DNA of 32,000 bases from Aeropyrum pernix K1 (GCF_000011125.1 NC_000854.2:1440001-1472000); one strand, 5' to 3'; positions 2,776-32,000 are shown, counted from the stretch's first letter. Notes: generated by a model not told the origin, from the letters alone. Translations and numbers: made by a program.

Positions 2776-4758
2776 CTAGAGTTCCCTCAACACCCTTCCG
2801 GGCTCCTCCTGGAAAGCCGATCCGTAACCAACTAGTATCACTGTATCCGGCTGAAGGGCATCAAGTATCTCAGGCCTGTTTGTAGAAACTATGAGCGTTA
2901 TGCCTTTGCTTCGAGCCAGCTTGCCGAGCTTTCGCGCTATCCTCCTCGCTGTCAACGGGTCCAGGTGAGCCATAAACTCGTCTATAACCAGTAGATTGGG
3001 TCTCTCTGCCAGGAGGCTGGCTAGTTTAGCCCTCTCCTTCTGCCCTGTGCTGAGCTCTCCGAAGCTGGCTCTGAAGAATATTGCGTCACCCAGGCCCACA
3101 CTGCTGAGGACCTCGACAGCAGCCCCCGGGTCGCCGAGCTTAGAAGCCACATGCTCCAGCAGCGTCTCACCACCGAAGGATGGCTCCAGCTCGCCCGGGA
3201 GGAGTGCGGCCGCCTTGGTGTTTGTTGGTATCTTAACCACGCCGCTATCAGGCCTATAACCCTCGCCACCTATACCCAGCGCCTTTCCGAGTATCATTCG
3301 TAGCAGTGTGGTCTTCCCCGCCCCGCTGGCGCCGACGACCGCTGCCACGCTCCCTGGGTTCACAGTTATATTAACATCCTTCAGGACATACCTTTCCACC
3401 ACCCTCCTTTCGGCGCCGAACGCTCTTAGCACATCCTGAAGCTCCCTAGGCAGCCTCTCTATATCGAGGACGCTTCTGTAGGATTTTGTAACCCCCACTA
3501 GTGATTCAGGCTCGCTCAGCATCTCTACGGGGCTATATCTAGGCCTGTAGAGGACGCCTCCATGGCTTTTAGCCACGGGATCGCTGGACAGGAACTTTTC
3601 GATTATTCGCCTAGCCTCCTCTGTTAGTGGGTGCATAAGTACCGGCCGGCCGCTAGCCGTGTCCCACATGTACTTGAAACCTGCGCGCTCGAAGAAGGGA
3701 TTGTACCTGGCCATCTGTGCTATAGTCTCCACAACATGCTTAGCCCTCCTCATCTCCGGTATCCTCCTCTCCCTGATCCACTCTAGAGCCAGGCTAACAG
3801 AGGCTACCCCAAGCCCGTCTCCCCTATAGTCTGGGTGGACTACAACACGGGCTATCCTTGCGGCGGCCGTGTTAGCCCTTCTAAGTGCTTCATCAGCTAT
3901 CTCCTCGCCTACAGCAGCCCTGGCGATTCTCCTGCTGCCGTATAGCTTGGCGAGCTCCCTGAACCTGGCCAGCAGGCTTCGCCTATTACGGGGTTCTACT
4001 GGCCAGAAGGTCGGGTGGAACCAGTATTTCGGGAACACCTTTTCTCTTATCATCTTCTCGACTCCAAAACCTCCCCCAGGCTTGGGGACGCGGCGGTGCA
4101 TCAGGGGTATCGGGGTGTCAACCCTCACGTAACCCACTATCCTTGGCTCGTACGGCTTGCGGTCTAGAAGTTCGACAACCATGAATCTGCTGCTGGGCAG
4201 GCTTCCCCTTATTTCCTGGAGCTTCATGGGAACTCCGTCTCTAGGGCATTCTGGCTGTAGATTACTCTCTAGATAGACCCCGCATACTGGACACCTCCAT
4301 ATAGCTACTATCTCCTCTTTGCTGGCGTAGTGGTACTGTTCAAGCCCAACTATCTCTTTATAATCCTCCTCGGTTTGGGCCTCCCTGGCGAGGAGTCTAT
4401 AACTATATACCCTCCTGCCGGTGATAGTCTCCCTGTCAATCGATACAACCTTTCTCCAAACAGGCCATACTAGAACCCTCTCCCCTCTATAGATTCTCCA
4501 GAGCCTGTAACTCTCCCTAGGTGCAACCATGACACCATCTATATCCTCGGGTTCCTCGTGAAGCTCTAGCTCAACAGTTTCGCCGGGCGAGAACCAGCGG
4601 GCTATGCCGCCAGTCATAAACAAATGGAGTCTTCCTCCCTCGTGCTCTACAGTAAGTCCGCCCAGCCACCTCCAGCCCACGCGGGGTATACGCTGCCCGA
4701 TTACTTTAGCCTTAAAAGGCCTCATGAGGGGAGGGTTGTGAGAGGACACACAATACAC
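2776..4758 (-). CDS. ABC-type ATPase fused to a GNAT acetyltransferase-like domain (COG2401-like), with N-terminal domain of unknown function
   Basis: 660 aa. GNAT motif A-like VVVHPDYRGDGLGVASVSLALEW (aa ~305-327) and CPVCG-x11-C (aa 156-171). C-terminal NBD has Walker A GASGAGKTT (aa 476-484), signature LSTGQKERA and Walker B/D-loop LLVIDEFMAHLD. TATA (minus-sense TTTATA, 4786-4793) lies ~28 nt upstream of the GTG at 4758. Confidence 0.85.
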   Translation of the reverse strand: MYCVSSHNPPLMRPFKAKVIGQRIPRVGWRWLGGLTVEHEGGRLHLFMTGGIARWFSPGETVELELHEEPEDIDGVMVAPRESYRLWRIYRGERVLVWPVWRKVVSIDRETITGRRVYSYRLLAREAQTEEDYKEIVGLEQYHYASKEEIVAIWRCPVCGVYLESNLQPECPRDGVPMKLQEIRGSLPSSRFMVVELLDRKPYEPRIVGYVRVDTPIPLMHRRVPKPGGGFGVEKMIREKVFPKYWFHPTFWPVEPRNRRSLLARFRELAKLYGSRRIARAAVGEEIADEALRRANTAAARIARVVVHPDYRGDGLGVASVSLALEWIRERRIPEMRRAKHVVETIAQMARYNPFFERAGFKYMWDTASGRPVLMHPLTEEARRIIEKFLSSDPVAKSHGGVLYRPRYSPVEMLSEPESLVGVTKSYRSVLDIERLPRELQDVLRAFGAERRVVERYVLKDVNITVNPGSVAAVVGASGAGKTTLLRMILGKALGIGGEGYRPDSGVVKIPTNTKAAALLPGELEPSFGGETLLEHVASKLGDPGAAVEVLSSVGLGDAIFFRASFGELSTGQKERAKLASLLAERPNLLVIDEFMAHLDPLTARRIARKLGKLARSKGITLIVSTNRPEILDALQPDTVILVGYGSAFQEEPGRVLREL

Positions 4759-5562: not shown

Positions 5563-6762
5563 ATGGTGGTTTGTGTGATGGATCAGTCGGGGGGCCTCAG
5601 GCTGGGTGGGCGTAGCTCTCTGACTTTAGGCATGGTTGTCCTGTTTGGGGTGGCGCTAGGTGGAGCAATTTTAGGGTTCCTGGCGGGAGAGCTTAGCCAG
5701 ACTTCTCTAGTATACTCGTCCCAGTGTTATCTGAAATCTTCCTCTCAGCTCGAAGGATTAGTAGAAGCTAGCGGGAGGATAGCTGTTATGTTTTCTAGTG
5801 AGACTTGCCCTACCTGCAAGGTAATAGAGCCGGTCTGGACGGAATTATGCGAGAGTGGCGGTTATAAGGGGGTCAGGCTGGCGGTGATAAAGCTTGATAA
5901 TGATACTGCTGATGCTTTCCTGAAGAACAACGTTACGGGCACACCCACTTTCATACTCTTCGAGAACGGTAAGGAGCTGTCGAGGTATGTTGGAGCGTTT
6001 AAGGGAGACATTGAAGACGGTATTAAGGAATGGATAGACGCCAGCCTTAGGCAGGACGGAGCTTCCGGCGGCACCACAGAAATTTTCGGGGGATCAGCTA
6101 CACCGGTTAACACCTCCAGTCAAGGAGCTATTCTATCACTTTCCAGTACTGTGACAATTATGACGGCTTTCCTAGCAGGCTTCATAGCAGCCCTGTCGCC
6201 CTGCGTTCTGCCTGTTCTCTATTCGTACATAACAGGGCTAGGCGTATCCTCAGGGGGAAAGCCGCCTGTCCATGCTATAATCCTCGCCCCCATGCTGGCC
6301 GCCCTTGGAGCCGCCTCGATAGGCGCGCTCTTCCTAGGCCTTGGAAGCGTGCTTGAGCCTTTCCGCCAGGCTCTCCTTTTCGCTGCATCCATAGTGCTAG
6401 TATCAGCTGGCATCCTTGAGCTGATGGGAATACCAACCTATACTGCCATAAGGATTAGGAGTGGCGGCGGTTTGTTCGGTTTCAGTCTTCTATATGGCGT
6501 GCTGTCGGTTCAATGCAGCCTCCCACTGGTACTGGGCGGCCTTCTGCTTGTGGCAGGTGGCGGCTTAGAAGCGGGTCTTATTTCCCTAGCGGCCTTCTCT
6601 ATCGGAATCGGGATGCCAGTAGCAATAGCGGTTGCAGCAGTTAGAACGGGGATAGCGAGGGTTCCGGGGATACTGGGTTCGGCTAGGCTGTTGAAGGCAG
6701 GTTATCTCGCAGTATCCATAGGTGGTGTGTATATGCTTGCATACTCGCTTGGCGTGATATGA
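5563..6762 (+). CDS. ccdA: Membrane-anchored thioredoxin domain fused to CcdA/DsbD-type thiol-disulfide electron transporter
   Basis: 399 aa. N-terminal TM helix, then a Trx fold with the active site SSETCPTCK (C82/C85) and the cis-Pro loop GTPTF. A Gly/Ser linker leads to a 6-helix CcdA-like core with the two conserved Cys in ALSPCVLPVL (C214) and SVQCSLPLV (C318). An in-frame TGA lies immediately before the ATG at 5563. Confidence 0.85.
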   Translation: MVVCVMDQSGGLRLGGRSSLTLGMVVLFGVALGGAILGFLAGELSQTSLVYSSQCYLKSSSQLEGLVEASGRIAVMFSSETCPTCKVIEPVWTELCESGGYKGVRLAVIKLDNDTADAFLKNNVTGTPTFILFENGKELSRYVGAFKGDIEDGIKEWIDASLRQDGASGGTTEIFGGSATPVNTSSQGAILSLSSTVTIMTAFLAGFIAALSPCVLPVLYSYITGLGVSSGGKPPVHAIILAPMLAALGAASIGALFLGLGSVLEPFRQALLFAASIVLVSAGILELMGIPTYTAIRIRSGGGLFGFSLLYGVLSVQCSLPLVLGGLLLVAGGGLEAGLISLAAFSIGIGMPVAIAVAAVRTGIARVPGILGSARLLKAGYLAVSIGGVYMLAYSLGVI

Positions 6763-6780: not shown

Positions 6781-9780
6781 ATGTCTAGCCTAGTCGGTCT
6801 GCACTACGCCACGGTTCTACCGCTGGCAGCTTACCTACTACTAGCCGTTGTTATTCTGCTTCTCGCTATGGGGAGAGATGGCGCGGCGAGGAAAACATTC
6901 ACAGCTAGCTTGCTTATGATAGTGCTTGGCTGGATCCCCTATATTGCTGCGTTCCTCCTGCTCGACTATAGTCTTGATGAGGTTGCGAAAAACGCGTCAG
7001 ACGAGTTATCGCCGTACCTGCGGATCGGGGCTGCATGGTCCGGGGGCGGCGGTAGCCTTTATCTCTTCTCCGCTTTCCTATCACTAGCAATCCTGCTTCA
7101 AATGCTGCTTAACAAGGGCTTGAATAGGCGTGCCATGGCCGTTTTCACGCTTCTAGTATTAACTTCGATGACTTCAGCAACTCTCATGGGAGCTTTCGGA
7201 ACCGGACCGGGAGAGCGGGGAGGGCTAGGCATAAATCCTGTTCTAAAGAACTACTGGGTTGTACCCCACCCAACTACAACCTTCCTGGGCTACAGCTTCA
7301 TATTAGTAGGGTCTGTAGCTCTGGTACTAGGTTATTATAGAACAGGCCTTCCAATTCAGCTTCTGGGCCTCGCGTTTCTCACCTTCGGCCTCGTCTTCGG
7401 CGGCATGTGGAGCTACGAGACATTTGGGTGGGGAGGCTACTGGGCATGGGACCCTGTCGAGACAAGCCAGCTCGCGGTCTGGCTTGCAACGGTCGCCTCG
7501 ATACATATGATAGGCCCCCTTAGGAGCCTTAACCGGGGGTTCGCTGCGTATGCCGCCAGCTCCGTATTCTTAGCTCTCTATGTTACTAGGAGCGGGGTTA
7601 GCCCTCTACACAGCTTTGCGGCAGAGAGCTTTTCCGCGGTTCTACTGTTATCGGCTTCACTGGTAATGCTGGCTCTCTCGATGCTACTATTTTCAGAGGG
7701 TGTCGGAGAGACTCTCGAGAAGTGGAAGAGCCGTCTTCAGGACGCGCGCTGGCCCCCTAGAATTGCGGAGATGAATCTCTCGAACATACTTCTGACGGTT
7801 GGCTCTGTGTCTATTGCCCTCTCAGCACTTATAGTCTACTCGTCGCTGTTAACACCATCAGTGTTAAAGCTAGTTGGTCTCGATACTCAGCCTCCATCGT
7901 TTGAGCAGGGGGTGAGGTTCTACAATAGACTACTCATACCTCTAGCTCTTGTCTCCCTCTATGCGGTGGCCGGTTACTACGTCTCTGTTAGGGCAGGGGC
8001 GAAGGCGGCTTACAGTCTATTCGCAACACTGACTGTTGTTCTAGCCATAATGGGCCTGGCTACGGTCAAGAATACCATAATTATATCCCCCCTTTCCGAC
8101 ACGACCACAAACCTAGCCTCCGCTACCCTACTAGCCGCGGGCTCGATATCGGGATCAGTGCTACTAGCTATGTCACTCTGGATGTTATATGGCATGGTAA
8201 AGGGTAAGGTAGCAAAGAGTGTACACACACTCAGGATAGTGCTTGAGAAGCTAGTGCACGCCACTATGATTATGATACTTGTTTCTGTGGCCATGAGCGG
8301 TAGCTATGCTTACAACCAGGGATACAGCGAAGAGGTCTTAGTACCGTTAGGCGGAGAAGTTAGCGTTATGGGGGTCACCATATCATACGAGGGCTACGAT
8401 TATGAATTACACCAGGGTACGGTGGATCTAAAGAATAATCTCGACCCTTCAAGCGCCATTTTGATTACAGCCAGGGAAGCCCTAAACATGATGGATGAGG
8501 ATTTATCTTCGACTATCAGGGAATATAGGCTTGCATCAGCGGAATCCCAGTCAGACCGGACTCTTCAGACTCTTCTAAAGGCTTCAGCCAGCAACTCCGA
8601 ATATAGGGGCGTCTTCACCTCAACCAGAGGTGTAGCTGATGCTGCAGTTGTCGATGTGAGAACAGGAGAAAATATATCTAACATTCAAACGGCTGGAGAA
8701 ACGGTTCTTCAGCTTGAAGACCCTACACTTGAGGTCACAATAGATCCCAAGCTCGACCCGGAGACTGGGAGGATAGAGGGAGGTGCTCTGAGCGTTGTCT
8801 TCTACCCTGAGAGGCTTGTGGTGTATGGGATCGGCAGCCCCGTGTCACTTGATCCTTATTCATACTTATATGTTCGGTTCCGTGAGCCGGTGGAGATTAA
8901 TTTGGACGATATAACTGTGAATATGGAGGAAGTAGTCGTTTATTCTACTGGTGGCAGTAGCATAGAGGGTGTGGTATCGGGGCAATCTGTCCTATTCGAG
9001 GGTGTAGCCATTAGGGTAGTTTCGGGGGAGTTATCGTTCGGTTCTATGAACATAGAGTTGCCGTACCAGCTGGATAGGGGTGAATTCTTCTACTTTATGG
9101 TTTATAAGGGTCAGGCTGAGGTTTTAGATGATATCTTGTCTTCCAGCATATCCGACCTTCTAGAGTCTGGAATAGCGGGACTGGCAGCCGGAGAAGATAT
9201 GGACGATTTTAATGTGCCTAGGAGAGCCCCGGCTGGAGTCAGTCTTAGACTGTTCATGGAGGTTAACGGGGAGCCTGTGGAGGCTGATCTACGGTTCGAG
9301 GCTAACGGGGAGGCTATAGGGATACATGGCCTTGTGATAGACACAATAATATTGAGGAGGGGGCTAACGAATGTATACATAACAGTACAGGCGCCCCTAG
9401 TCAGCGGCCACTTCGGGGAATATCACGAGCTCATGGTTTATTATTTAAATGAAGCTATGAACACCCTCAGGCCAGAAGAGTACTTGGCCCTTGCTTCGGT
9501 GATGGCTGCAGGCTACAATATAGCGAGCATAGTATCCTCGCCCAGTAAAGAGAGGGCCGCGCTAGAGGTAGAGAGAGCTACGATAGACCTGTACCTGCTC
9601 TCGGAGAAGTTAGATGAGAAGCGTTCAAGCGCGGCTGAGGGAATAGTTGTTAGTGTGAAGATAGTTCCTGGGGTTCCGCTCCTCTGGTTAACTGGCGTGC
9701 TAGCAGGGGTCCTCCTGCTTGCTATGGCTTCTATCCACTTCTACCTGGGCTTCAGGCAGGGCCGACTTATTGATACTTAG
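6781..9780 (+). CDS. ccmF: CcmF-type cytochrome c heme lyase (System I) with greatly expanded extracytoplasmic domain
   Basis: 999 aa, starting 18 nt after the upstream gene. By-eye alignment to E. coli CcmF: RIGAAWSGGGGSLYLF, INPVLKNYWVVPHP (H163), the WWD motif GWGGYWAWDPVETSQLAVW (aa 216-234), IHM (H242), SGVSPLHSFA (H277) and LVHATMIM (H493). Hydrophilic block aa ~508-962 is followed by a final TM helix. Confidence 0.85.
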   Translation: MSSLVGLHYATVLPLAAYLLLAVVILLLAMGRDGAARKTFTASLLMIVLGWIPYIAAFLLLDYSLDEVAKNASDELSPYLRIGAAWSGGGGSLYLFSAFLSLAILLQMLLNKGLNRRAMAVFTLLVLTSMTSATLMGAFGTGPGERGGLGINPVLKNYWVVPHPTTTFLGYSFILVGSVALVLGYYRTGLPIQLLGLAFLTFGLVFGGMWSYETFGWGGYWAWDPVETSQLAVWLATVASIHMIGPLRSLNRGFAAYAASSVFLALYVTRSGVSPLHSFAAESFSAVLLLSASLVMLALSMLLFSEGVGETLEKWKSRLQDARWPPRIAEMNLSNILLTVGSVSIALSALIVYSSLLTPSVLKLVGLDTQPPSFEQGVRFYNRLLIPLALVSLYAVAGYYVSVRAGAKAAYSLFATLTVVLAIMGLATVKNTIIISPLSDTTTNLASATLLAAGSISGSVLLAMSLWMLYGMVKGKVAKSVHTLRIVLEKLVHATMIMILVSVAMSGSYAYNQGYSEEVLVPLGGEVSVMGVTISYEGYDYELHQGTVDLKNNLDPSSAILITAREALNMMDEDLSSTIREYRLASAESQSDRTLQTLLKASASNSEYRGVFTSTRGVADAAVVDVRTGENISNIQTAGETVLQLEDPTLEVTIDPKLDPETGRIEGGALSVVFYPERLVVYGIGSPVSLDPYSYLYVRFREPVEINLDDITVNMEEVVVYSTGGSSIEGVVSGQSVLFEGVAIRVVSGELSFGSMNIELPYQLDRGEFFYFMVYKGQAEVLDDILSSSISDLLESGIAGLAAGEDMDDFNVPRRAPAGVSLRLFMEVNGEPVEADLRFEANGEAIGIHGLVIDTIILRRGLTNVYITVQAPLVSGHFGEYHELMVYYLNEAMNTLRPEEYLALASVMAAGYNIASIVSSPSKERAALEVERATIDLYLLSEKLDEKRSSAAEGIVVSVKIVPGVPLLWLTGVLAGVLLLAMASIHFYLGFRQGRLIDT

Positions 9781-9913: not shown

Positions 9914-12151
9914 ATGTTAAAGGCTTTTGGAGGAGCATCTATAGCCCTTGTAACGGCTTTGCTGCTTCTCCTCGTCATAATACTCTCTCCAATCCAGGGA
10001 GCAGTTTCCGCTGCCTATAGTGTTCTCGTAGACGACTCGCATACTTACGGTAGAAGTATAGTTTACAATGCAATAAGCTCTAAAACTGGAATAGCGCCCC
10101 TCCAATATAGTGATGCGGCTGCAGGCACCATTTATAGTGATGGAGCGTTCGACGGCTTAATCACGCTGTACTATGGTACAATACCGTTTGCCACCGCGAG
10201 GTGGGATAGTAACTGGTCAGGCGATGACGTGTTTAACGATGTAGCCGCAAGTAGTCAGGCATCAGCCACGGTAGTGGGGTATACGAAGAAGTCTTACAGC
10301 CTGGGCGTCATCGCCGAGTACAATAACAATGGTCTCCTCCTTAACAATTACGTGTTCGGAGTCGGCGGGGCAAAACATGTAACAGTGAACGGTATAGTCT
10401 ATAGTCCTGCGCACAGCGCCTATGTTATAGTGGGTGACCTCGAGGGCGTCTCCTGGGCGCCCAAGGCAGGCTTCATAGCCATAGGAAACGCATCTGGCAT
10501 AGGAGGCATCGTAAAAGTAATACTAGCCTACAGTAGCTTCGAGAAGGTCGACGTGGTTAAGGACCCCTCTAACACCCGCTACGGCTATATAGCGGTAGCC
10601 GCAACATTCTTCAACAATACCGACATGAGCTTCGACGACGCCGGTGTTGTTCTTCTAGACCCCAATCTAAACCTCGTTACCTCGATGTACATAGACCTCC
10701 CTGGGCATGAGAAGGGGCTGGACGTCGCTTTTAACGGGTCTGAAGTAGTCCTTGCGGGCCAGAGCGTAGATTCCTCAGGAGGGAGTCATGGTTTCCTCTC
10801 GGCCAGCAAATACGACTTCGCGAACGACCTCTGGGCTAACATCTGGCACATGATTATAGACACGCCGGTGGACGATGCTGTCACTGGCGTGGACCTTAAA
10901 GCAGGCGTGATATACGTATCAGGCTACACCTCGATGCAGACTAACGGGCAGGCGACGGCGTTCGTAGGCTTCATAGACGGCGGCCCATCCCAGACAGTCC
11001 TCCTCGACTACACTGGCGGGAGCACGGTGTTCAACGATGTAAAGGCCGACGGCAACCAGTTTATACACGCCGCTGGCAAAGTCGTTGGACAGCCGTTCCC
11101 AGGCACCCTCTCCCAAAGCAGCATCACACCAATCATTTCGCAGCAGATTGTAGCTAACAGGAGTGACACGCTCAAGGACCTCGAGGCCAGAAACACGGAT
11201 GTCTCCGGGAGTTCGCAGCTTATAAGCCCTGTATACGATAACCCTACAACCCTAAGCGGCCTCTATGTAGTGCTTGCGCCGAAGGATGAAGGCGGGGGCA
11301 CCGATACGTCCACAACGACGACAACGACAATAACGACAATAACGATAACCGGTACTAGAACTACCACGACCTACACGACATTCCCAGGAACGGTAACGCC
11401 AACCTTCCCACAGCAGCCATACTGTATAGACATAAGCACCGGAAGCGAAGCACCCGGGGTACTCGACCCACTCGGCACTTTTGAAAACCCGGTAACTCAG
11501 GCGCCCGACTGGGGGACCAGCCAACCCCTAGGGAGGCCCGTCTCTTCAGTACAGCTGAGTGCGTGGCCCTCATTCCAGGGGGTCCAAGGCTTCCCCGGCC
11601 AGTGGATAACAGCCTACTTTGACCTTCAAGACCCCAGCAAGCCCGACTATAACACCACAAACAGGCCTGTAACAACATACGCCATAAGCTTCTACCTACC
11701 AGCTCCAGGGCAGCTCGTCATGGAGTGGAGTGCCGACGACTCCGGAGAGCTATTCATAGATGGAACGCTAGTTCAAACACACTCCGGCCAGAACGCCTTC
11801 CAGACGACAACCTCCTACCAAACAAGCCTCCTCCAGGGGAACCACACAATAGAAATCAGAGTGATGGACGAGCACGCCCACTACACGGGGCTGTTTGTAA
11901 GTGGCAGCGTCTGCGTTAACGCCTGCACACCAGAGACAGTAACAACCACTGTATATGCGCCGGGAGTCACAACATCAGTCGCGACAAAGACCGATGAGGG
12001 AGCCCAGGCTACAGTCACGTCACTCATACCGGAGGACGAAGGACCTCTCTCCAGCCTGCTAGACTCTATACCAGGCGGTATAGCTGGCGCTATTGCTATA
12101 ATAGCGGGCCTGGTTATAGCAACAGGAGTAGCATATAGAATATTGAAGTGA
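9914..12151 (+). CDS. Secreted surface protein: beta-rich N-domain, internal Thr stalk, PA14-like C-domain, C-terminal TM anchor
   Basis: 745 aa. Signal-like N-terminus (IALVTALLLLLVIILSPIQGAVSA). Poly-Thr stalk TSTTTTTTITTITITGTRTTTTYTT. The C-domain motif VMEWSADDSGELFIDGTLV...GNHTIEIRV resembles PA14-type beta-sandwiches. Second Thr-rich stretch, then a TM helix and the tail YRILK. Confidence 0.7.
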   Translation: MLKAFGGASIALVTALLLLLVIILSPIQGAVSAAYSVLVDDSHTYGRSIVYNAISSKTGIAPLQYSDAAAGTIYSDGAFDGLITLYYGTIPFATARWDSNWSGDDVFNDVAASSQASATVVGYTKKSYSLGVIAEYNNNGLLLNNYVFGVGGAKHVTVNGIVYSPAHSAYVIVGDLEGVSWAPKAGFIAIGNASGIGGIVKVILAYSSFEKVDVVKDPSNTRYGYIAVAATFFNNTDMSFDDAGVVLLDPNLNLVTSMYIDLPGHEKGLDVAFNGSEVVLAGQSVDSSGGSHGFLSASKYDFANDLWANIWHMIIDTPVDDAVTGVDLKAGVIYVSGYTSMQTNGQATAFVGFIDGGPSQTVLLDYTGGSTVFNDVKADGNQFIHAAGKVVGQPFPGTLSQSSITPIISQQIVANRSDTLKDLEARNTDVSGSSQLISPVYDNPTTLSGLYVVLAPKDEGGGTDTSTTTTTTITTITITGTRTTTTYTTFPGTVTPTFPQQPYCIDISTGSEAPGVLDPLGTFENPVTQAPDWGTSQPLGRPVSSVQLSAWPSFQGVQGFPGQWITAYFDLQDPSKPDYNTTNRPVTTYAISFYLPAPGQLVMEWSADDSGELFIDGTLVQTHSGQNAFQTTTSYQTSLLQGNHTIEIRVMDEHAHYTGLFVSGSVCVNACTPETVTTTVYAPGVTTSVATKTDEGAQATVTSLIPEDEGPLSSLLDSIPGGIAGAIAIIAGLVIATGVAYRILK
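11324..11350 (+). repeat. 9-bp tandem repeat (ACGACAATA x2 plus degenerate ACGATAACC) inside the poly-Thr stalk coding region
   Basis: Read directly: acgacaata (11324-11332), acgacaata (11333-11341), acgataacc (11342-11350). It encodes TTI-TTI-TIT. Confidence 0.7.
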
Positions 12152-17094: not shown

Positions 17095-17123
17095 CCTAAA
17101 TGCTTCTAGGCAGATAAGATGTA

Positions 17124-17744
17124 TTATGCTGTGTACAACTCGGCCTTAACAACACTTCCTAGAATCCTTACAAGCGCATACCTCCCCTCATACGCGGGCC
17201 CTGGGTTGACGAAGACGGTGCCTCCTATGGATTCAATGCCCGGCGACTCGTGGATATGCCCGAACAGGTGGGCTCTAGGCTTCAGCGAATCAACAAGGCT
17301 CCTGAGGTCGTGTAGACCCGCTCTAACGCCGGCGAAGGTAGTGTCGAGCACTCCGTGGGGCGGATGGTGGGTGAGCAGGACGTCCACTGTCAACCCGCTA
17401 GACTCCAGGGATCGCAGAAGCATTTCCATGCTAGTCCTAGGATCCATACCACCAACCCCACCGAACACTAGGCCACCCACTCTATCCACCCTCCCATCCA
17501 TAAGGACGCCAGCGCTACGTAGAACCCTCCTCACCCCGGCGTGGTCTAGATTTCCAGTCACAGCAACGAGGGGCACACCCTCTCGCCTCGACCACTCAAC
17601 TATTGCTACTGCCGCCTTCTCACACTCGAAATCGCCCGTGGCTGCTACCGTTGAGGGTTTTACAGGGAGAGACGATATAATGTCCTCTAGCCTCCTGAGG
17701 CTGCAGTGGATGTCCGAGACGTGAAGTATAACGCTTCCACCCAA
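17124..17744 (-). CDS. Calcineurin-like metallophosphoesterase
   Basis: Motifs ILHVSDIHCS, ATGDF, VTGNLDH, LLTHHPPHG and LFGHIHE. The maximal ORF reaches 17879 and overlaps the divergent gene. The TTG at 17744 is preceded by GGGGGAGG 6-7 nt upstream and sits ~8 aa before the D-x-H motif, as is typical. The start is uncertain, and the ATG at 17807 is an alternative. Confidence 0.75.
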   Translation of the reverse strand: MGGSVILHVSDIHCSLRRLEDIISSLPVKPSTVAATGDFECEKAAVAIVEWSRREGVPLVAVTGNLDHAGVRRVLRSAGVLMDGRVDRVGGLVFGGVGGMDPRTSMEMLLRSLESSGLTVDVLLTHHPPHGVLDTTFAGVRAGLHDLRSLVDSLKPRAHLFGHIHESPGIESIGGTVFVNPGPAYEGRYALVRILGSVVKAELYTA

Positions 17745-17852
17745 TCCAATCCTCCCCCTACGGGATAGCGGTACAGTGGTGCAGGTAAGCCAGATCACTA
17801 TATCCATGCGTGTACATAAAAATTGCTGCAAGAAACATAAGATGATTATTAG

Positions 17853-19575
17853 GTGGGTTGTTTGGAGGAAATCCGACATAATGCAGCCGAGGCTTACCTC
17901 TCTCGCCCTTGGCTTAAGAAGTATGACGAGGGAGTTCCCGCCGATATCGAGATCCCGGATAAACCCCTCTACTGGATCCTGGAGGAGAGCGCCTCGAGGT
18001 TCCCAAGCAGGACTGCACTTTTATTCTATGGGAGGAGGGTCACTTATAGGGAGCTGTTGGAGTCTGCTCTCCAAGTTCGCTGGGTATCTCCGCTCCCGCG
18101 GCGTCGGTAAGGGGGATGTCGTCGGGCTCTTCCTCCCCAACTCCCCCCAGTTCGCCATAGCCTTCTACGGAGCCCTAATTGCGGGTGCCATTGTCAGCCC
18201 TATGAATGTGCTCTACAGCCCCCGGGAGATACGCCATCAGCTCTCGGATAATAAGGCTAGGGTTCTTGTGGCGCTGGACATGTTCAAAGACAGGGTGCTG
18301 GCAGGTCTTCCGAGCAGTGTTGAAGAGGTCCTCTGGACCGGCATACAGGACTATCTCCCCGGGCTCAAGGCCCTGCTTTACAAGCTGTTCAAGAAGCCTC
18401 CTAGCCCCCCGAAGGGCGGTATACACAAGAAGTTTACTGATGCCCTTAAGCACGAGCCCATAGACTCTAAGCCCGAGATAAACCCGCACGAGGATGTAGC
18501 CGCCTTAATGTACACAGGCGGCACCACTGGCACCCCTAAAGGCGCTATGCTGACGCACAGGAACCTGCTGGCAAACGTCCTACAGATAGACGCCTGGTTC
18601 AAGAGGGGTGTAAGGGGTAAAGACGTTTTCGTGGGAGCTCTTCCATGGTTCCACATCTACGGCCTTACTGCAGTCCTAAACAGCGGGGTCCAAAAGGCTG
18701 CTACGATAATCGTCTATGCAAGGCCGAATATCGAGGAGATAATGAGGGATATTGAGAGGTATAAGGCCACGGTCTTCCACGGGGTGCCCACACTATACAG
18801 GATGATTATAAACCACCCCAAAGTTGAGAAGTTCAACCTAAGAAGCCTAGAGGTGTGTATAAGCGGCGCCGAGCCTCTCCCCAAGGCTGTAGCAGAAAGG
18901 TTTATGGAGATTACCGGGGCAAAGCTGAGGGAGGGCTACGGCCTGACAGAGACCAGTCCCGTGACTCACGTGAACCCCATAATGGGCGAGGCCCGCTACG
19001 GCAGCATAGGCATCCCGGTACCATCAACCGTAGCGGCGGTTGCCGATCCAGAGTCCCCCGCAATTCTCGAGCCCGGGCAGGTGGGGGAGCTCGTGGTATC
19101 GGGCCCTCAGGTTATGAAGGGCTACTACAACAGGCCTGAGGAGAACGAGAAGGTTTTCTTCGAGTGCTGCGGGCTGAGGTGGCTGCGCACGGGCGATATG
19201 GCGCGCATGGATGAGGACGGCTATTTCTACATAGTTGACAGGAAGAAGGACATAATCAAGTACAAGGGTTACAGCGTCTTCCCGAGGGAGATAGAAGAGG
19301 TTCTATACCGCCACGAGTGCGTGAGGGAGGCTGCAGTCATTGGAGTCCCACACCCCGAGTATAACGAGGTGCCGAAGGCCTTCGTCGCCCTAAGGGACGA
19401 GTGTAAGGGCAAGGTAAAGCCCGAGGATATAATAGAGTTCGCCAGGAAGCATCTTGCACCGTACAAGGTGCCTAAGGAGGTTGAGATAAGGGAGGACCTC
19501 CCAAAGAGCGGGGTAGGCAAGATACTTAGAAGAGTTCTAAGGGAGGAGGAGCTGAAAAAGAGGGGGCAGGCTTGA
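17853..19575 (+). CDS. Long/medium-chain acyl-CoA synthetase (AMP-forming), interrupted by a +1 frameshift near 18063-18073
   Basis: The frame-1 body carries MYTGGTTGTPKGAMLTHRNL, GYGLTETSP, TGDMARMDEDGYFYIVDRKKDIIKYKGYSVFPREIE and PKSGVGKILRR. The conserved N-terminus (YLSRPWLKKYDEGVPADIEIPDKPLYWILEESASRFPSRTALLFYGRRVTYRELLES) is in frame 3, running from the GTG at 17853 with that frame's stop at 18108-18110. Confidence 0.85.
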
Positions 19576-28930: not shown

Positions 28931-30181
28931 TCACCCGGTGCTACCGTTTTTAAACCCGGAGTTCTCGGCTATCCTGGCGAACTCGCTGACTAGTATAGCC
29001 TCTATGTCCTCCAGGGACAGTTGACCCCTGTCACTAGCCTCCTCGAGAAGCCTTCTCAACGCGCCCCCCACCTTTTTTGTGTAGGAGTTGAGCGCGAGCT
29101 CCACGGCCTCGCGGGGGTCTACGCCGTTCCTAAGGCCGGCAAGCGTTCTCTCATACTCCCTCTCGGCGAGTATGGAGAGGGCCCTCATGACGGATCTCGA
29201 AGACTCTCTAGCCCTTCTCCTAGAGAGGGCATCCAGCAGGGCCTCCAGCTCCTCCTCTATTATCGCCTCGGCGGCAGGTATCCAACGCAGCCTCTCCTCC
29301 ATCATCCTCTTAGCCTCCTCCTCAACCTCGGGCATGTGGAAAACCCTGCCCGCCACCTTTGGGGTAACCGGCGGGTTTGAGATGTCTACTATAACCCTGG
29401 GGCTCACGCCCCTCTCAACCCTCCCCCTCTCCAGAATATTGGTAGAGCCTGCTATGGCGACGAAGAGGGCGTCTAATTCATTTATAAGCTTCGCCAGCTC
29501 GTCAAGCGGTAATACTAGGGACTCCACGCCCCTGCACTTGCCAGCGACCTCCCAACCCCTCTCAGGGGTCCTGTTAAACACCGCTACAACTCTCGGCCTC
29601 CACCTGGTGCACAATGCTCTGGCTATGCCTACGGCAGCCATGCCCGCCCCCACTATGCCAACTCTCGCCCCGTCAAGCCCACCTCCTAGGAGGCTGGCAG
29701 CTAGGGACACCGCCGCGCTGGAGTACCCCACTCCACCCGACGATATGGCCGACTCGCTTCTAACCCTGGCCCCAGTCTTGAGGGCCCTGTGGAACACCTC
29801 GTCGAGCAGAGGCGTGGTGAACCCCTTCTCCCTAGACTTAAGCCAGGCTCTGCGTACCTGCCCGAGGACCTCGTGATCCCCTATTATCTGGGACTCGAGG
29901 CCCGAGGCCACTCTGAAGAGGTGTCTGGCGGCATCGATACCTTGTAGCCTTACTAGGCCTTCTCCACCGGGGGAGGCTATGCTGGAGGCGAGGTCCTCCA
30001 CTAGCCTGGATGGGCTGTCTAGATAGACCTCGAACCTGTTGCACGTTGCTATTATGACGGTTCCTCTCGATGCATAACCTATAGTGTCTAGGTGTTTCTC
30101 CCACTCTTTCTCAAGCCTGGCCACGTGCTCCCTGGAGGCGGTTTTAACGTTTACCCCTATCATGGCGAGCCTGTCTATCAT
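28931..30181 (-). CDS. hemA: Glutamyl-tRNA reductase
   Basis: Active-site motif IIATCNRFEVY and NAD(P)-binding VGIVGAGMAAVGIARAL. The start overlaps the hemC stop (TAATG). Confidence 0.9.
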   Translation of the reverse strand: MIDRLAMIGVNVKTASREHVARLEKEWEKHLDTIGYASRGTVIIATCNRFEVYLDSPSRLVEDLASSIASPGGEGLVRLQGIDAARHLFRVASGLESQIIGDHEVLGQVRRAWLKSREKGFTTPLLDEVFHRALKTGARVRSESAISSGGVGYSSAAVSLAASLLGGGLDGARVGIVGAGMAAVGIARALCTRWRPRVVAVFNRTPERGWEVAGKCRGVESLVLPLDELAKLINELDALFVAIAGSTNILERGRVERGVSPRVIVDISNPPVTPKVAGRVFHMPEVEEEAKRMMEERLRWIPAAEAIIEEELEALLDALSRRRARESSRSVMRALSILAEREYERTLAGLRNGVDPREAVELALNSYTKKVGGALRRLLEEASDRGQLSLEDIEAILVSEFARIAENSGFKNGSTG

Positions 30182-31104
30182 TAAGAGCCACCTCCTGTCT
30201 TATGCCAGCCCTCCACAACCCGGGACAGCTCCTCTCCAAGACTGACGCCGATTCTCCTAGCCTCCTCGATCCTCCCCTCGGCTCTAGCCCAGTAGGCCCT
30301 GGATCCGTCGGGCGAGAGGGCGGCGGCTGTCACCCTAACCATGCTCCGGCCCAGCGGCTCGGCGTATGCGGCTACGGGGGTTCTACAGCCGGCCCTTGCC
30401 CCCTCAAGCACACCCCTCTCCGCCCAGGCCACATGCCACCACGGGGGCTTATCCAAATCTCGTAGCATCTTCTCAACGTTGCTTCCAACCCTGGCTACGA
30501 CGGCCACGAACCCCTGGCCGGGCGCTGGGGGGAAGTAGCTCGGGTCTAGGGGCGTGTACTCTACGTCGACGCCTAGCCTTATGAGACCCGCCTCCGAGGC
30601 AATTATTGCGTCGTAGAGGCCCTCCCTAAGCTTCCTCAGCCTCGTGTCTAGGTTGCCCCTGAGGTTCTCCACCCTGATCCTCGGGTTGTAGTGGAGGGAG
30701 AGAGCCCTTCTCCTCGCGCTGGATGTGCCTAAGGTGGAACCGGGCTCAAGGTCCTCGACCCTCCCAGGGCCTTGTCGTGATATGAGGGCGTCTCTGGCGG
30801 ACGGCCTGCTGGCTATGTAGACTATTTTGAGGGGGCCGCCGTAGCCGCTGGTCGGCATGTCCTTTAGGCTATGAACGGCAATGTCCGCAGCCCCCGACGC
30901 CACGGCCCTGTCGACCTCCCTCGTGAACACCCCCACGACTCCAATTGACTCCAGCGGCCTGTCGCTCCACACGTCGCCAGCGCTCTTCACCCTCACCACC
31001 TCCCAGTGCATCGAGACTCCCGCGTACCTGGAGAGTTCTTCCAGGGCCTGCTCTACCTGCAGGAGGCTGAGCCTACTCCCCCTCGCCGCCACCCTCACCC
31101 TCAA
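30181..31104 (-). CDS. hemC: Hydroxymethylbilane synthase (porphobilinogen deaminase)
   Basis: RVAARGSRLSLLQVE, AVHSLKDMPT, RGNLDTRLRKL, PAPGQG and the cofactor Cys in GCRTPVAAYA. The TTG start at 31104 overlaps the hemL stop (TTGA). Confidence 0.9.
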   Translation of the reverse strand: MRVRVAARGSRLSLLQVEQALEELSRYAGVSMHWEVVRVKSAGDVWSDRPLESIGVVGVFTREVDRAVASGAADIAVHSLKDMPTSGYGGPLKIVYIASRPSARDALISRQGPGRVEDLEPGSTLGTSSARRRALSLHYNPRIRVENLRGNLDTRLRKLREGLYDAIIASEAGLIRLGVDVEYTPLDPSYFPPAPGQGFVAVVARVGSNVEKMLRDLDKPPWWHVAWAERGVLEGARAGCRTPVAAYAEPLGRSMVRVTAAALSPDGSRAYWARAEGRIEEARRIGVSLGEELSRVVEGWHKTGGGS

Positions 31105-32000
31105 GACCCCAGCACCGTCTTGAGCGAACTCCTGAGGCCCTCAACCGCAATCTCTAGGGCCTCACCCTGGTGTGGGAGGCCTGTGAATACTGCCTCCAGG
31201 TTCGAGGGAGCTATGAATACGCCCCTCCTGAGCATCTCTTCGTGGAGCTTGACGTAGAACTTCTTATCAGCTTTTCTCGCCTGGGCAGCGTTGGAAACCT
31301 CCTCGACTCCTATGAAAAGCTGCATCATGCTCTCCACCCTGTTTATAGTGTAGGGTAAGCCCGTCCTGTCGAGGACCTCGGATGCCGCCTCCTCGAGAGC
31401 CTTTGCCGCCTCCCTCGAAACACTGTAGACCGGCTCCTCCTCGAGAGCCTTCAGCGTGGCCAGCCCGGCAGCCATGGTTATGGGGTGCGCGTTGAACGTT
31501 CCCGCGTTGAACACCTTGCCCTGGGGTGTTAGGAGGCTCATCACCTCCCTAGACCCTGCTACAGCGCCGACCGGGAAGCCGCCGCCTATTATCTTGCCCA
31601 GAACAATTATGTCGCCTTCAATGTTGAAGTAGCCTTGAGCCCCTTCGAGACCGAGCCTGAACCCTGTGACCACTTCATCCAGGATCAGAAGCGCCCCACT
31701 CTCTCTGGAAAGCCTCTGGAGGGCCGCTAGGAACTCCCTGCGGGGAGGTATAACCCCAGCATTAGCTATAACGGGCTCTACTATGACTCCCGCTATCCTG
31801 TCTCCATACTCGGCGAAGACGCGTTCGAGAGCCTCGACATCGTTATACGGGGTGACGAGGGTTAGCCTGGCGACAGCCTCAGGGACCCCCGCGCTGGTAG
31901 GGACGCCGTAGTGTGCAGCCGCGCTCCCAGCTGCAACGAGCACAGCGTCGTGGCTACCGTGGTAGCACCCGTCGAACTTCAGTATGAGGTCTCTCCCAGT
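31101..32000 (-). CDS. hemL: Glutamate-1-semialdehyde 2,1-aminomutase, N-terminus beyond the window
   Basis: LILDEVVTGFRLG, GKIIGGGFPVGA and FNAGTFNAHPITMAAGLATL. The reading frame stays open to nt 32000, so the ATG at 31943 is internal. Confidence 0.9.
   Translation of the reverse strand, partial: TGRDLILKFDGCYHGSHDAVLVAAGSAAAHYGVPTSAGVPEAVARLTLVTPYNDVEALERVFAEYGDRIAGVIVEPVIANAGVIPPRREFLAALQRLSRESGALLILDEVVTGFRLGLEGAQGYFNIEGDIIVLGKIIGGGFPVGAVAGSREVMSLLTPQGKVFNAGTFNAHPITMAAGLATLKALEEEPVYSVSREAAKALEEAASEVLDRTGLPYTINRVESMMQLFIGVEEVSNAAQARKADKKFYVKLHEEMLRRGVFIAPSNLEAVFTGLPHQGEALEIAVEGLRSSLKTVLGS

Follow-up and report, generated by a model that had tools for sequence, protein, structure and literature searches.

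A large predicted extracytoplasmic domain with a nested lineage-specific insertion in the CcmF heme lyase of Aeropyrum pernix and related archaea

Cytochrome c maturation in archaea has been assigned to a variant of System I (CcmABCEF), in which CcmE carries a CXXXY motif and CcmH is lacking; Aeropyrum pernix is among the founding examples of this variant. CcmB, CcmC, CcmE and CcmF of A. pernix were the BLAST queries in a survey of archaeal cytochromes c, in which CcmH was reported among archaea for Ferroglobus only (Kletzin et al. 2015, PMC4429474). In Methanosarcina, CcmF is split into two genes and ccmG and ccdA are separate (Gupta et al. 2022, PMC9084895), while in A. pernix CcmF is one giant polypeptide and the thioredoxin and CcdA functions are fused in the gene upstream. 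The subject of this study is ccmF of A. pernix K1, located in a 32,000-nucleotide stretch of the genome (GCF_000011125.1, NC_000854.2:1440001-1472000; referred to as the window). Both the gene and its role as cytochrome c heme lyase are already known: the annotation of A. pernix CcmF dates back to the publication of the genome, and the protein has served as a reference where cytochrome c maturation of archaea was surveyed. The enlarged outward domain of the Desulfurococcales CcmF proteins and the insertion of approximately 256 amino acids (aa) therein are not described in the literature searched, which did not cover Allen et al. 2006.

Bacterial CcmF (6ZMQ of Thermus thermophilus; E. coli CcmF/NrfE, TIGR00353) has 15 transmembrane (TM) helices, a WWD loop and the outward-facing ligands P-His1 and P-His2, as does the A. 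pernix protein. Both also have the heme b ligands TM-His1 and TM-His2 in TM7 and TM14, respectively, as well as an outward domain between TM14 and TM15 opening with a homologous beta-hairpin. The two TM histidines for the accessory heme b set CcmF apart from CcmC. In contrast to bacterial CcmF of approximately 650 aa, A. pernix CcmF is 999 aa long, its TM14-TM15 loop comprises approximately 455 aa compared to approximately 85 to 100 aa in the shortest forms, a CcmH partner is missing and the protein scores well under the curated CcmF cut-off. CcsBA of System II (7S9Y; PMC10663686) belongs to the same WWD/P-His superfamily, and its periplasmic 'beta cap' is, like the loop of the long CcmF, a large beta-rich outward domain. 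However, A. pernix CcmF has no ResB homology, its sequence resembles CcsBA in the WWD core only (E = 0.0066), its outward domain is located C-terminally rather than N-terminally, and no Foldseek similarity was found between the two outward domains.

The ccmF open reading frame (ORF; 6781 to 9780, plus strand) starts with ATG. It encodes 999 aa without a single cysteine, as stated in an initial annotation that had been made from the sequence alone. Its product is 100% identical to an A. pernix K1 protein named "putative cytochrome C-type biogenesis protein" at NCBI. The assignment as a CcmF-type heme lyase, also proposed there, is well supported. Pfam Cytochrom_C_asm (PF01578) was matched with 52 bits at a cut-off of 29.9, and NCBIfam CcmF/NrfE (TIGR00353) matched aa 56 to 513 (E = 1.5e-28). 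The CcmF chain of 6ZMQ was found with the single A. pernix sequence (E = 1.4e-18) and with a family profile of 108 members (E = 9e-50), the latter match covering profile positions 14 to 521 and reaching the first periplasmic beta-hairpin. An AlphaFold2 (AF2) model built on the family alignment (mean predicted local distance difference test, pLDDT, 93.4; predicted TM-score, pTM, 0.90) retrieved 6ZMQ as the sole significant match in the PDB (Foldseek, E = 4e-9, TM-score 0.60 on the target). No ResB match was obtained with Pfam, and the protein is not a member of the CcsBA/ResB-CcsA group.

As shown by the family alignment and the AF2 model, the predicted catalytic kit of CcmF is complete, consisting of the WWD loop, the outward P-His1 and P-His2, TM-His1 and TM-His2, and 15 TM helices (Table 1). 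All CcmF motifs quoted in the initial annotation were recovered, with the WWD motif starting at aa 217, and the four histidines named there (H163, H242, H277 and H493) are invariant in the alignment of 108 sequences. The same holds for the columns W217 to E227 with the exception of A222, which is conserved in at least 90% of the sequences. Of the 15 long helices in the model, helix 7 carries H242 and helix 14 (TM14, residues 481 to 511) carries H493, matching the position of both TM histidines described for 6ZMQ (PMC10663686). TM15 aligns with the last TM helix of bacterial and archaeal CcmF proteins (hhalign). This topology agrees with the earlier proposal of a large hydrophilic block ahead of the last helix.

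The block between TM14 and TM15 (aa 508 to 962) is hydrophilic and acidic, containing 70 D/E versus 31 K/R. The cytoplasmic start of TM14 bears TM-His2 and a basic stretch, and TM15 ends in a basic tail; the placement of both helices and their basic ends put the block and the WWD loop on one side of the membrane. When modelled alone (aa 505 to 964), the domain was predicted as folded with a pLDDT of 93.6 and a pTM of 0.90. No fold match was found for this model in the PDB (Foldseek, E ≤ 1e-3), and aa 508 to 962 had no Pfam match even at E ≤ 1. Phage tail and Hcp-like beta proteins, the best of them at E = 0.034 and the others up to 0.1 (TM-score ≤ 0.3), were rejected as noise. The models depict the large extracytoplasmic block as a genuine, folded domain on the outer face, and it is present throughout the clade.

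The initial annotation had described the block as an insertion of approximately 455 aa into a loop of approximately 100 aa. The block itself was confirmed, the size of the insertion was not. When the profile of the long-form domain was compared by hhalign to short archaeal CcmFs with loops of 150 to 180 aa, aa 501 to 550 matched the beginning of the short loop (95% probability) and aa 807 to 984 with its remainder and the last TM helix (97.8% probability), whereas aa ~551 to 806 had no counterpart. Since the flanks align and the middle part does not, the block is best described as a core domain of approximately 200 aa with a nested insertion of approximately 256 aa; the earlier preference for a large insertion over a fusion holds. 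The core domain is composed of beta-hairpins (residues 516 to 543), a beta region (819 to 882), a helical bundle (883 to 953) and a strand leading into TM15. Its hairpin region (aa 512 to 550) aligns with residues ~530 to 552 of 6ZMQ in the family profile. A highly conserved motif, RFEANGE.xGIHGLV (aa 838 to 852), is located in the beta region, and invariant or near-invariant core positions are R838, G843, E844, G847, H849, G850, Y866, Y888, K960 and P963. The insertion consists of a helical hairpin (559 to 603), a module of approximately 150 aa with about 13 mostly long beta strands (619 to 765) and short helices (766 to 803).

Loops of 380 to 508 aa were found in 109 of the 120 best homolog clusters. 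Named carriers are Aeropyrum, Pyrodictium, Hyperthermus, Pyrolobus, Pyrofollis and Ignicoccus, besides metagenome-assembled genomes (MAGs) of Desulfurococcales, Thermoproteota and Korarchaeota. In a scan of species-representative genomes, the full-length matches among those listed came solely from Desulfurococcales-type archaea, and other archaea and bacteria matched the membrane core only. The block alone, searched with phmmer against 1.84 billion representative proteins, yielded 50 matches, mostly proteins of approximately 850 to 1065 aa from the long-CcmF clade, the rest being short (68 to 425 aa) and fragment-like; it was found neither in any other protein context nor outside this clade. 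Of the two properties that would have made the block unexceptional according to the initial annotation, being common was found within the clade, and a known fold or function was not.

The length of the TM14-TM15 loop varies widely in the CcmF family. It amounts to 83 to 92 aa in Thermoleophilia and an Archaeoglobaceae MAG, 150 to 220 aa in Ignavibacteria, Chloroflexi and other archaea, 300 to 340 aa in Acidobacteriota/Thermoanaerobaculia and approximately 455 aa in the Desulfurococcales-type clade, and this position is a general expansion hotspot of the family. The loops of 300 to 340 aa belong to bacterial relatives of 847 to 876 aa (L034, L046, L055, L065, L074 and L075), while relatives in the same size range from Kapaibacteria and an Ignavibacteriae MAG (L029, L035, L040 and L076) have loops of approximately 220 aa and apparently extra TM helices. 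An hhalign comparison of the domain with the loops of Acidobacteriota, Ignavibacteria, Chloroflexi and Kapaibacteria gave an alignment for the first hairpin and the last TM helix alone. Since they show no match to the archaeal insert, the larger bacterial loops either expanded independently or have diverged too far to be aligned. Two paralogous long-form ccmF genes are found in Pyrodictium (P0032 and P0042, both Pyrodictium abyssi, contig 2224219), which recalls the bacterial CcmF/NrfE paralogy for different clients.

The insert is modelled with pLDDT values mostly above 90 and is at the same time the least conserved region of the protein. The mean frequency of the top residue is 0.27 to 0.37 in the insert, compared to 0.51 to 0.55 in the core domain and 0.54 in the membrane core, and only 6 of the 256 insert columns are conserved to at least 80%. 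Across the family, the beta module contains 3.6 N-X-S/T sequons per 100 aa, and 59% of its asparagines are part of a sequon, compared to 11% in the membrane core. Such a sequon pattern is typical of glycosylated archaeal proteins exposed at the surface. A pair of cysteines in the proteins of Pyrodictiaceae and Ignicoccus has variable spacing, does not form a CXXC motif and occurs nowhere in the Aeropyrum clade; it has the appearance of a structural disulfide.

The gene directly upstream of ccmF encodes a thioredoxin fused to a CcdA/DsbD-like membrane part (Table 1). Public gene callers place its start at position 5578, resulting in a protein of 394 aa. The thioredoxin part matches Pfam Thioredoxin (PF00085; E = 2.5e-13) with CPTC at aa 82 to 85. 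The thioredoxin CxxC, an SPC..P motif (C214) and a QC..P motif (C318) are invariant in 19 orthologs. SPC..P and QC..P together represent the two-cysteine signature of CcdA/DsbD membrane thiol transporters. DsbD_TM (PF02683) matched three of the 19 orthologs (best E = 3e-5); for the membrane half of the A. pernix protein, no Pfam family including DsbD was matched at threshold, and a weak match to the NCBIfam TsoB/DsbD fusion was obtained (E = 5.6e-4). A homolog search with the upstream protein gave six matches only, probably caused by a bias towards thioredoxin words. As in the bacterial module of CcdA/DsbD and CcmG/ResA, an extracytoplasmic CxxC thioredoxin is combined with a membrane domain carrying two PC..P-type cysteines, the difference being that both functions reside in one polypeptide in A. 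pernix. In 16 of 24 related loci, the long ccmF is immediately preceded by this gene, and the two probably form an operon. Its ortholog in Pyrodictium delaneyi was assigned to the CcdA superfamily and "predicted to be a functional homolog of CcmH" (PMC5556600). An extra monoheme cytochrome c domain of approximately 120 aa separates the thioredoxin and CcdA parts in the proteins from Pyrodictiaceae, Ignicoccus and some Desulfurococcales MAGs (CXXCH, weak Cytochrome_CBB3 match; L002 6385-7944 and L001 7196-8662, the latter on the minus strand). Such a fusion protein would itself need the Ccm system that it serves.

The 24 loci encoding orthologs of the long CcmF were collected and their ORFs searched with the Ccm proteins of P. 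delaneyi. In most of them, ccmA, ccmB, ccmC and a ccmE-like gene adjoin ccmF, and ORFs with 4, 8 or 12 CXXCH motifs are located next to many. A 180-aa gene beside the orthologous ccmF/ccmC of P. delaneyi terminates with EGCHESY and thereby shows the CXXXY signature known from CcmE of archaea, and homologs of it adjoin the long CcmF in many loci. In ccmABCE genes, CXXXY-type CcmE and cytochrome c clients, these loci resemble the variant System I. Homologs of CcmB, CcmC and CcmE are missing from the window itself, and all six frames of its 32 kb are free of CXXCH motifs, in agreement with the initial annotation, which had overlooked the thioredoxin-CcdA gene as a partner. The single predicted cytochrome c of A. 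pernix, APE_1719.1, carries CVSCH at aa 44 to 48 and has been purified as the heme-stained cytochrome c553 subunit of the bc complex (PMC3062577). Going by the literature, the Ccm system of A. pernix would be dispersed rather than absent.

The best overall explanation, to which we assign a probability of roughly 85%, is that the protein is the CcmF of a CcmH-less archaeal System I (CcmABCEF), in which the TM14-TM15 loop is enlarged by the core domain and the insert, the latter acting as a cap. The enlargement would have proceeded in two steps, the first adding the conserved core domain of approximately 200 aa common to other archaeal CcmFs and the second the insertion found only in CcmFs of approximately 900 to 1070 aa from Desulfurococcales-type Thermoproteota. 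The thioredoxin-CcdA fusion would carry reducing equivalents across the membrane and keep the CXXCH cysteines of the apocytochrome reduced, a redox task that falls to CcmG/CcmH/DsbD in bacteria. CcmF would receive heme from a CXXXY-type CcmE encoded elsewhere and ligate it to APE_1719.1, the monoheme c553 subunit. For the insert, we favour a structural role as a cap or canopy that is exposed to the solvent and would cover the outward heme-attachment site, because it is predicted to be well folded, is acidic and poorly conserved, and is rich in sequons in most relatives; the cap role is further suggested by analogy to the beta cap above the active site of CcsBA. The insert might in addition be a docking surface for holo-CcmE or the apocytochrome, and either the conserved core domain or the insert may have a chaperone-type role. 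A catalytic or redox role of the insert is not inferred.

Several points weigh against this explanation. The score of A. pernix CcmF with TIGR00353 is 100 bits, compared to a curated cut-off of 569 bits, and CcmF_C (PF16327), the second of the two models suggested for checking in the initial annotation besides Cytochrom_C_asm, was not matched by the A. pernix protein in the Pfam search. CcmF_C did match five of its homologs with 30 to 38 bits across the TM region, and the low NCBIfam score marks A. pernix CcmF as a divergent branch. The presence of ccmA, ccmB, ccmC and ccmE in A. pernix is taken from the literature, and a word-indexed search with CcmC of P. delaneyi returned no Aeropyrum match. 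That the insert acts as a cap or shield is inferred, and the beta module of A. pernix itself holds one sequon only. Finally, the insert may have a specific binding role, since the high model confidence shows that its fold is under selection.

That the expanded domain or its insert replaces CcmH/CcmI by binding the CXXCH of the apocytochrome and presenting it to the WWD site, as considered in the initial annotation, appears quite unlikely. Such a replacement would fit an archaeal System I without CcmH (PMC4429474, PMC9084895), and a convincing LRCxxC-type CcmH ORF was not found in 30 archaeal loci using a crude regular expression, which is not a real test ([LIVM][RK]CxxC gave chance-like matches only in archaeal and bacterial loci). 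The domain is also predicted to be outward-facing, is confidently folded and kept across the whole order, and the RFEANGE.xGIHGLV motif of the core could be a binding element. However, redox chemistry of the CcmH type is impossible for a protein devoid of cysteine, and the cysteine pair of Pyrodictiaceae and Ignicoccus is neither constant in spacing nor found in the Aeropyrum clade. The low conservation of the insert argues against it as well, as do archaeal CcmFs with loops of 92 to 180 aa, the short ones lacking the insert, and bacterial CcmFs with loops of 200 to 340 aa at the same position. Maturation of cytochromes c in M. acetivorans both requires CcmABCEF1F2 and can be accomplished by it, with neither CcmH nor such a domain present (PMC9084895). 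A candidate for the CcmH-like role has been published in the form of the adjacent CcdA-superfamily gene (PMC5556600).

The lack of CXXCH and of ccmB, ccmC and ccmE in the window, together with the score far under the NCBIfam CcmF cut-off, could also point to an orphan or repurposed lyase of the WWD family, which would serve a non-CXXCH client or handle heme in another way, independent of the Ccm system. The initial annotation had regarded the lyase as isolated from partners and clients and had considered a non-standard client; both ideas are contradicted by the data and such a lyase is highly improbable. The thiol-reducing partner gene is located 18 bp upstream, the orthologs belong to complete ccm operons with multiheme cytochromes next to them, none of the CcmF-specific ligands varies, and the heme covalently bound in c553 of A. 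pernix is attached to a standard CVSCH protein. Least credible of all is a fusion of CcmF with an independent extracytoplasmic protein, e.g. a CcsB/ResB-like or S-layer-associated module. The size of the 455-aa block, its several subdomains without a Pfam match and the weak profile match to CcsBA (7S9Y, E = 0.0066) would be in line with a fusion, but this match is confined to the WWD core (profile positions 73 to 293). Moreover, both flanks of the block align with short archaeal CcmFs, the last TM helix follows the block as in every CcmF, no other protein context was found for the domain among the 1.84 billion representatives, and the loop size varies continuously across the family from 83 to 455 aa.

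Table 1. Features of the A. pernix ccmF locus. Positions refer to the window, residues to the encoded protein.
Feature	Position	Strand	Residues	Basis or remark
Thioredoxin + CcdA/DsbD-like multi-TM fusion	5563..6762	+		ends 18 bp before ccmF
CcmF membrane core	6781..8313	+	1-511	14 TM helices; 6ZMQ profile match and AF2 helices
P-His1, H163 (VPHP)	7267-7269	+	163	invariant in 108-sequence alignment; aligns with 6ZMQ equivalent
WWD motif WGGYWAWDPVE	7429..7461	+	217-227	family alignment; aligned to 6ZMQ motif
TM-His1, H242 (TM7)	7504-7506	+	242	invariant in 108-sequence alignment
P-His2, H277 (PLHSFA)	7609-7611	+	277	invariant in 108-sequence alignment; aligns with 6ZMQ equivalent
TM-His2, H493 (TM14)	8257-8259	+	493	invariant in 108-sequence alignment
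First beta-hairpins of the extracytoplasmic domain	8314..8430	+	512-550	common to bacterial and short archaeal CcmF
Nested lineage-specific insertion	8431..9198	+	~551-806	hhalign gap versus short archaeal CcmF
Conserved archaeal core of the extracytoplasmic domain	9199..9669	+	807-963	hhalign 97.8%
TM15 and short basic cytoplasmic tail	9670..9777	+	964-999	model helix 965-998, hydropathy

The genes neighbouring ccmF in the window are archaeal housekeeping genes. Just downstream of ccmF, an ORF of 745 aa (9914 to 12151, plus strand) encodes a protein with a signal-like helix at its N-terminus, a linker rich in Thr (TTTTTTITTITITGTRTTTTYTT) and a TM anchor at its C-terminus. No Pfam or NCBIfam match and no homolog in any of the 24 related ccmF loci was found for it; it was rejected as a part of the Ccm system because of the missing homologs and is probably a species-specific surface protein. 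An ORF of 660 aa (2776 to 4758, minus strand) combines a GNAT acetyltransferase domain (aa ~293 to 362) with a C-terminal ABC-type ATPase (aa 459 to 633), an unusual fusion. It was rejected as ccmA, the CcmA match being at the generic ABC level only (E = 1.8e-13). A heme biosynthesis cluster (28931 to 31943, minus strand) is located approximately 19 kb from ccmF and comprises hemA (GlutR), hemC (porphobilinogen deaminase) and hemL (aminotransferase class III), the latter being cut by the end of the window. Two ORFs overlap almost fully on opposite strands (17119 to 17724, plus; 17124 to 17879, minus). The plus-strand ORF is probably spurious, since only the minus-strand ORF has a Pfam match (metallophosphoesterase).

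The present analysis adds to the known role of CcmF that Desulfurococcales-type archaea share an enzyme about 50% larger than the bacterial one, that the added mass consists of an insertion restricted to this clade, which is folded with high model confidence and has no detectable relative by fold, and that the gene of the long CcmF is coupled to one for a fused thioredoxin-CcdA protein. If the insert is a glycosylated shield only, the finding is a footnote on the plasticity of CcmF loops. In a more far-reaching and rather unlikely version, insert and core would form a glycan-coated chamber of a kind not described before over the WWD/P-His site, a built-in docking chaperone for apocytochrome and holo-CcmE. 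Such a chamber would be a structural analog of the CcsBA beta cap or of CcmH/CcmI and would explain how the hyperthermophilic Desulfurococcales mature cytochromes with up to 12 hemes without CcmH in an open pseudo-periplasm. The long CcmFs bear on the question of how a CcmH-less System I presents the apocytochrome to CcmF.

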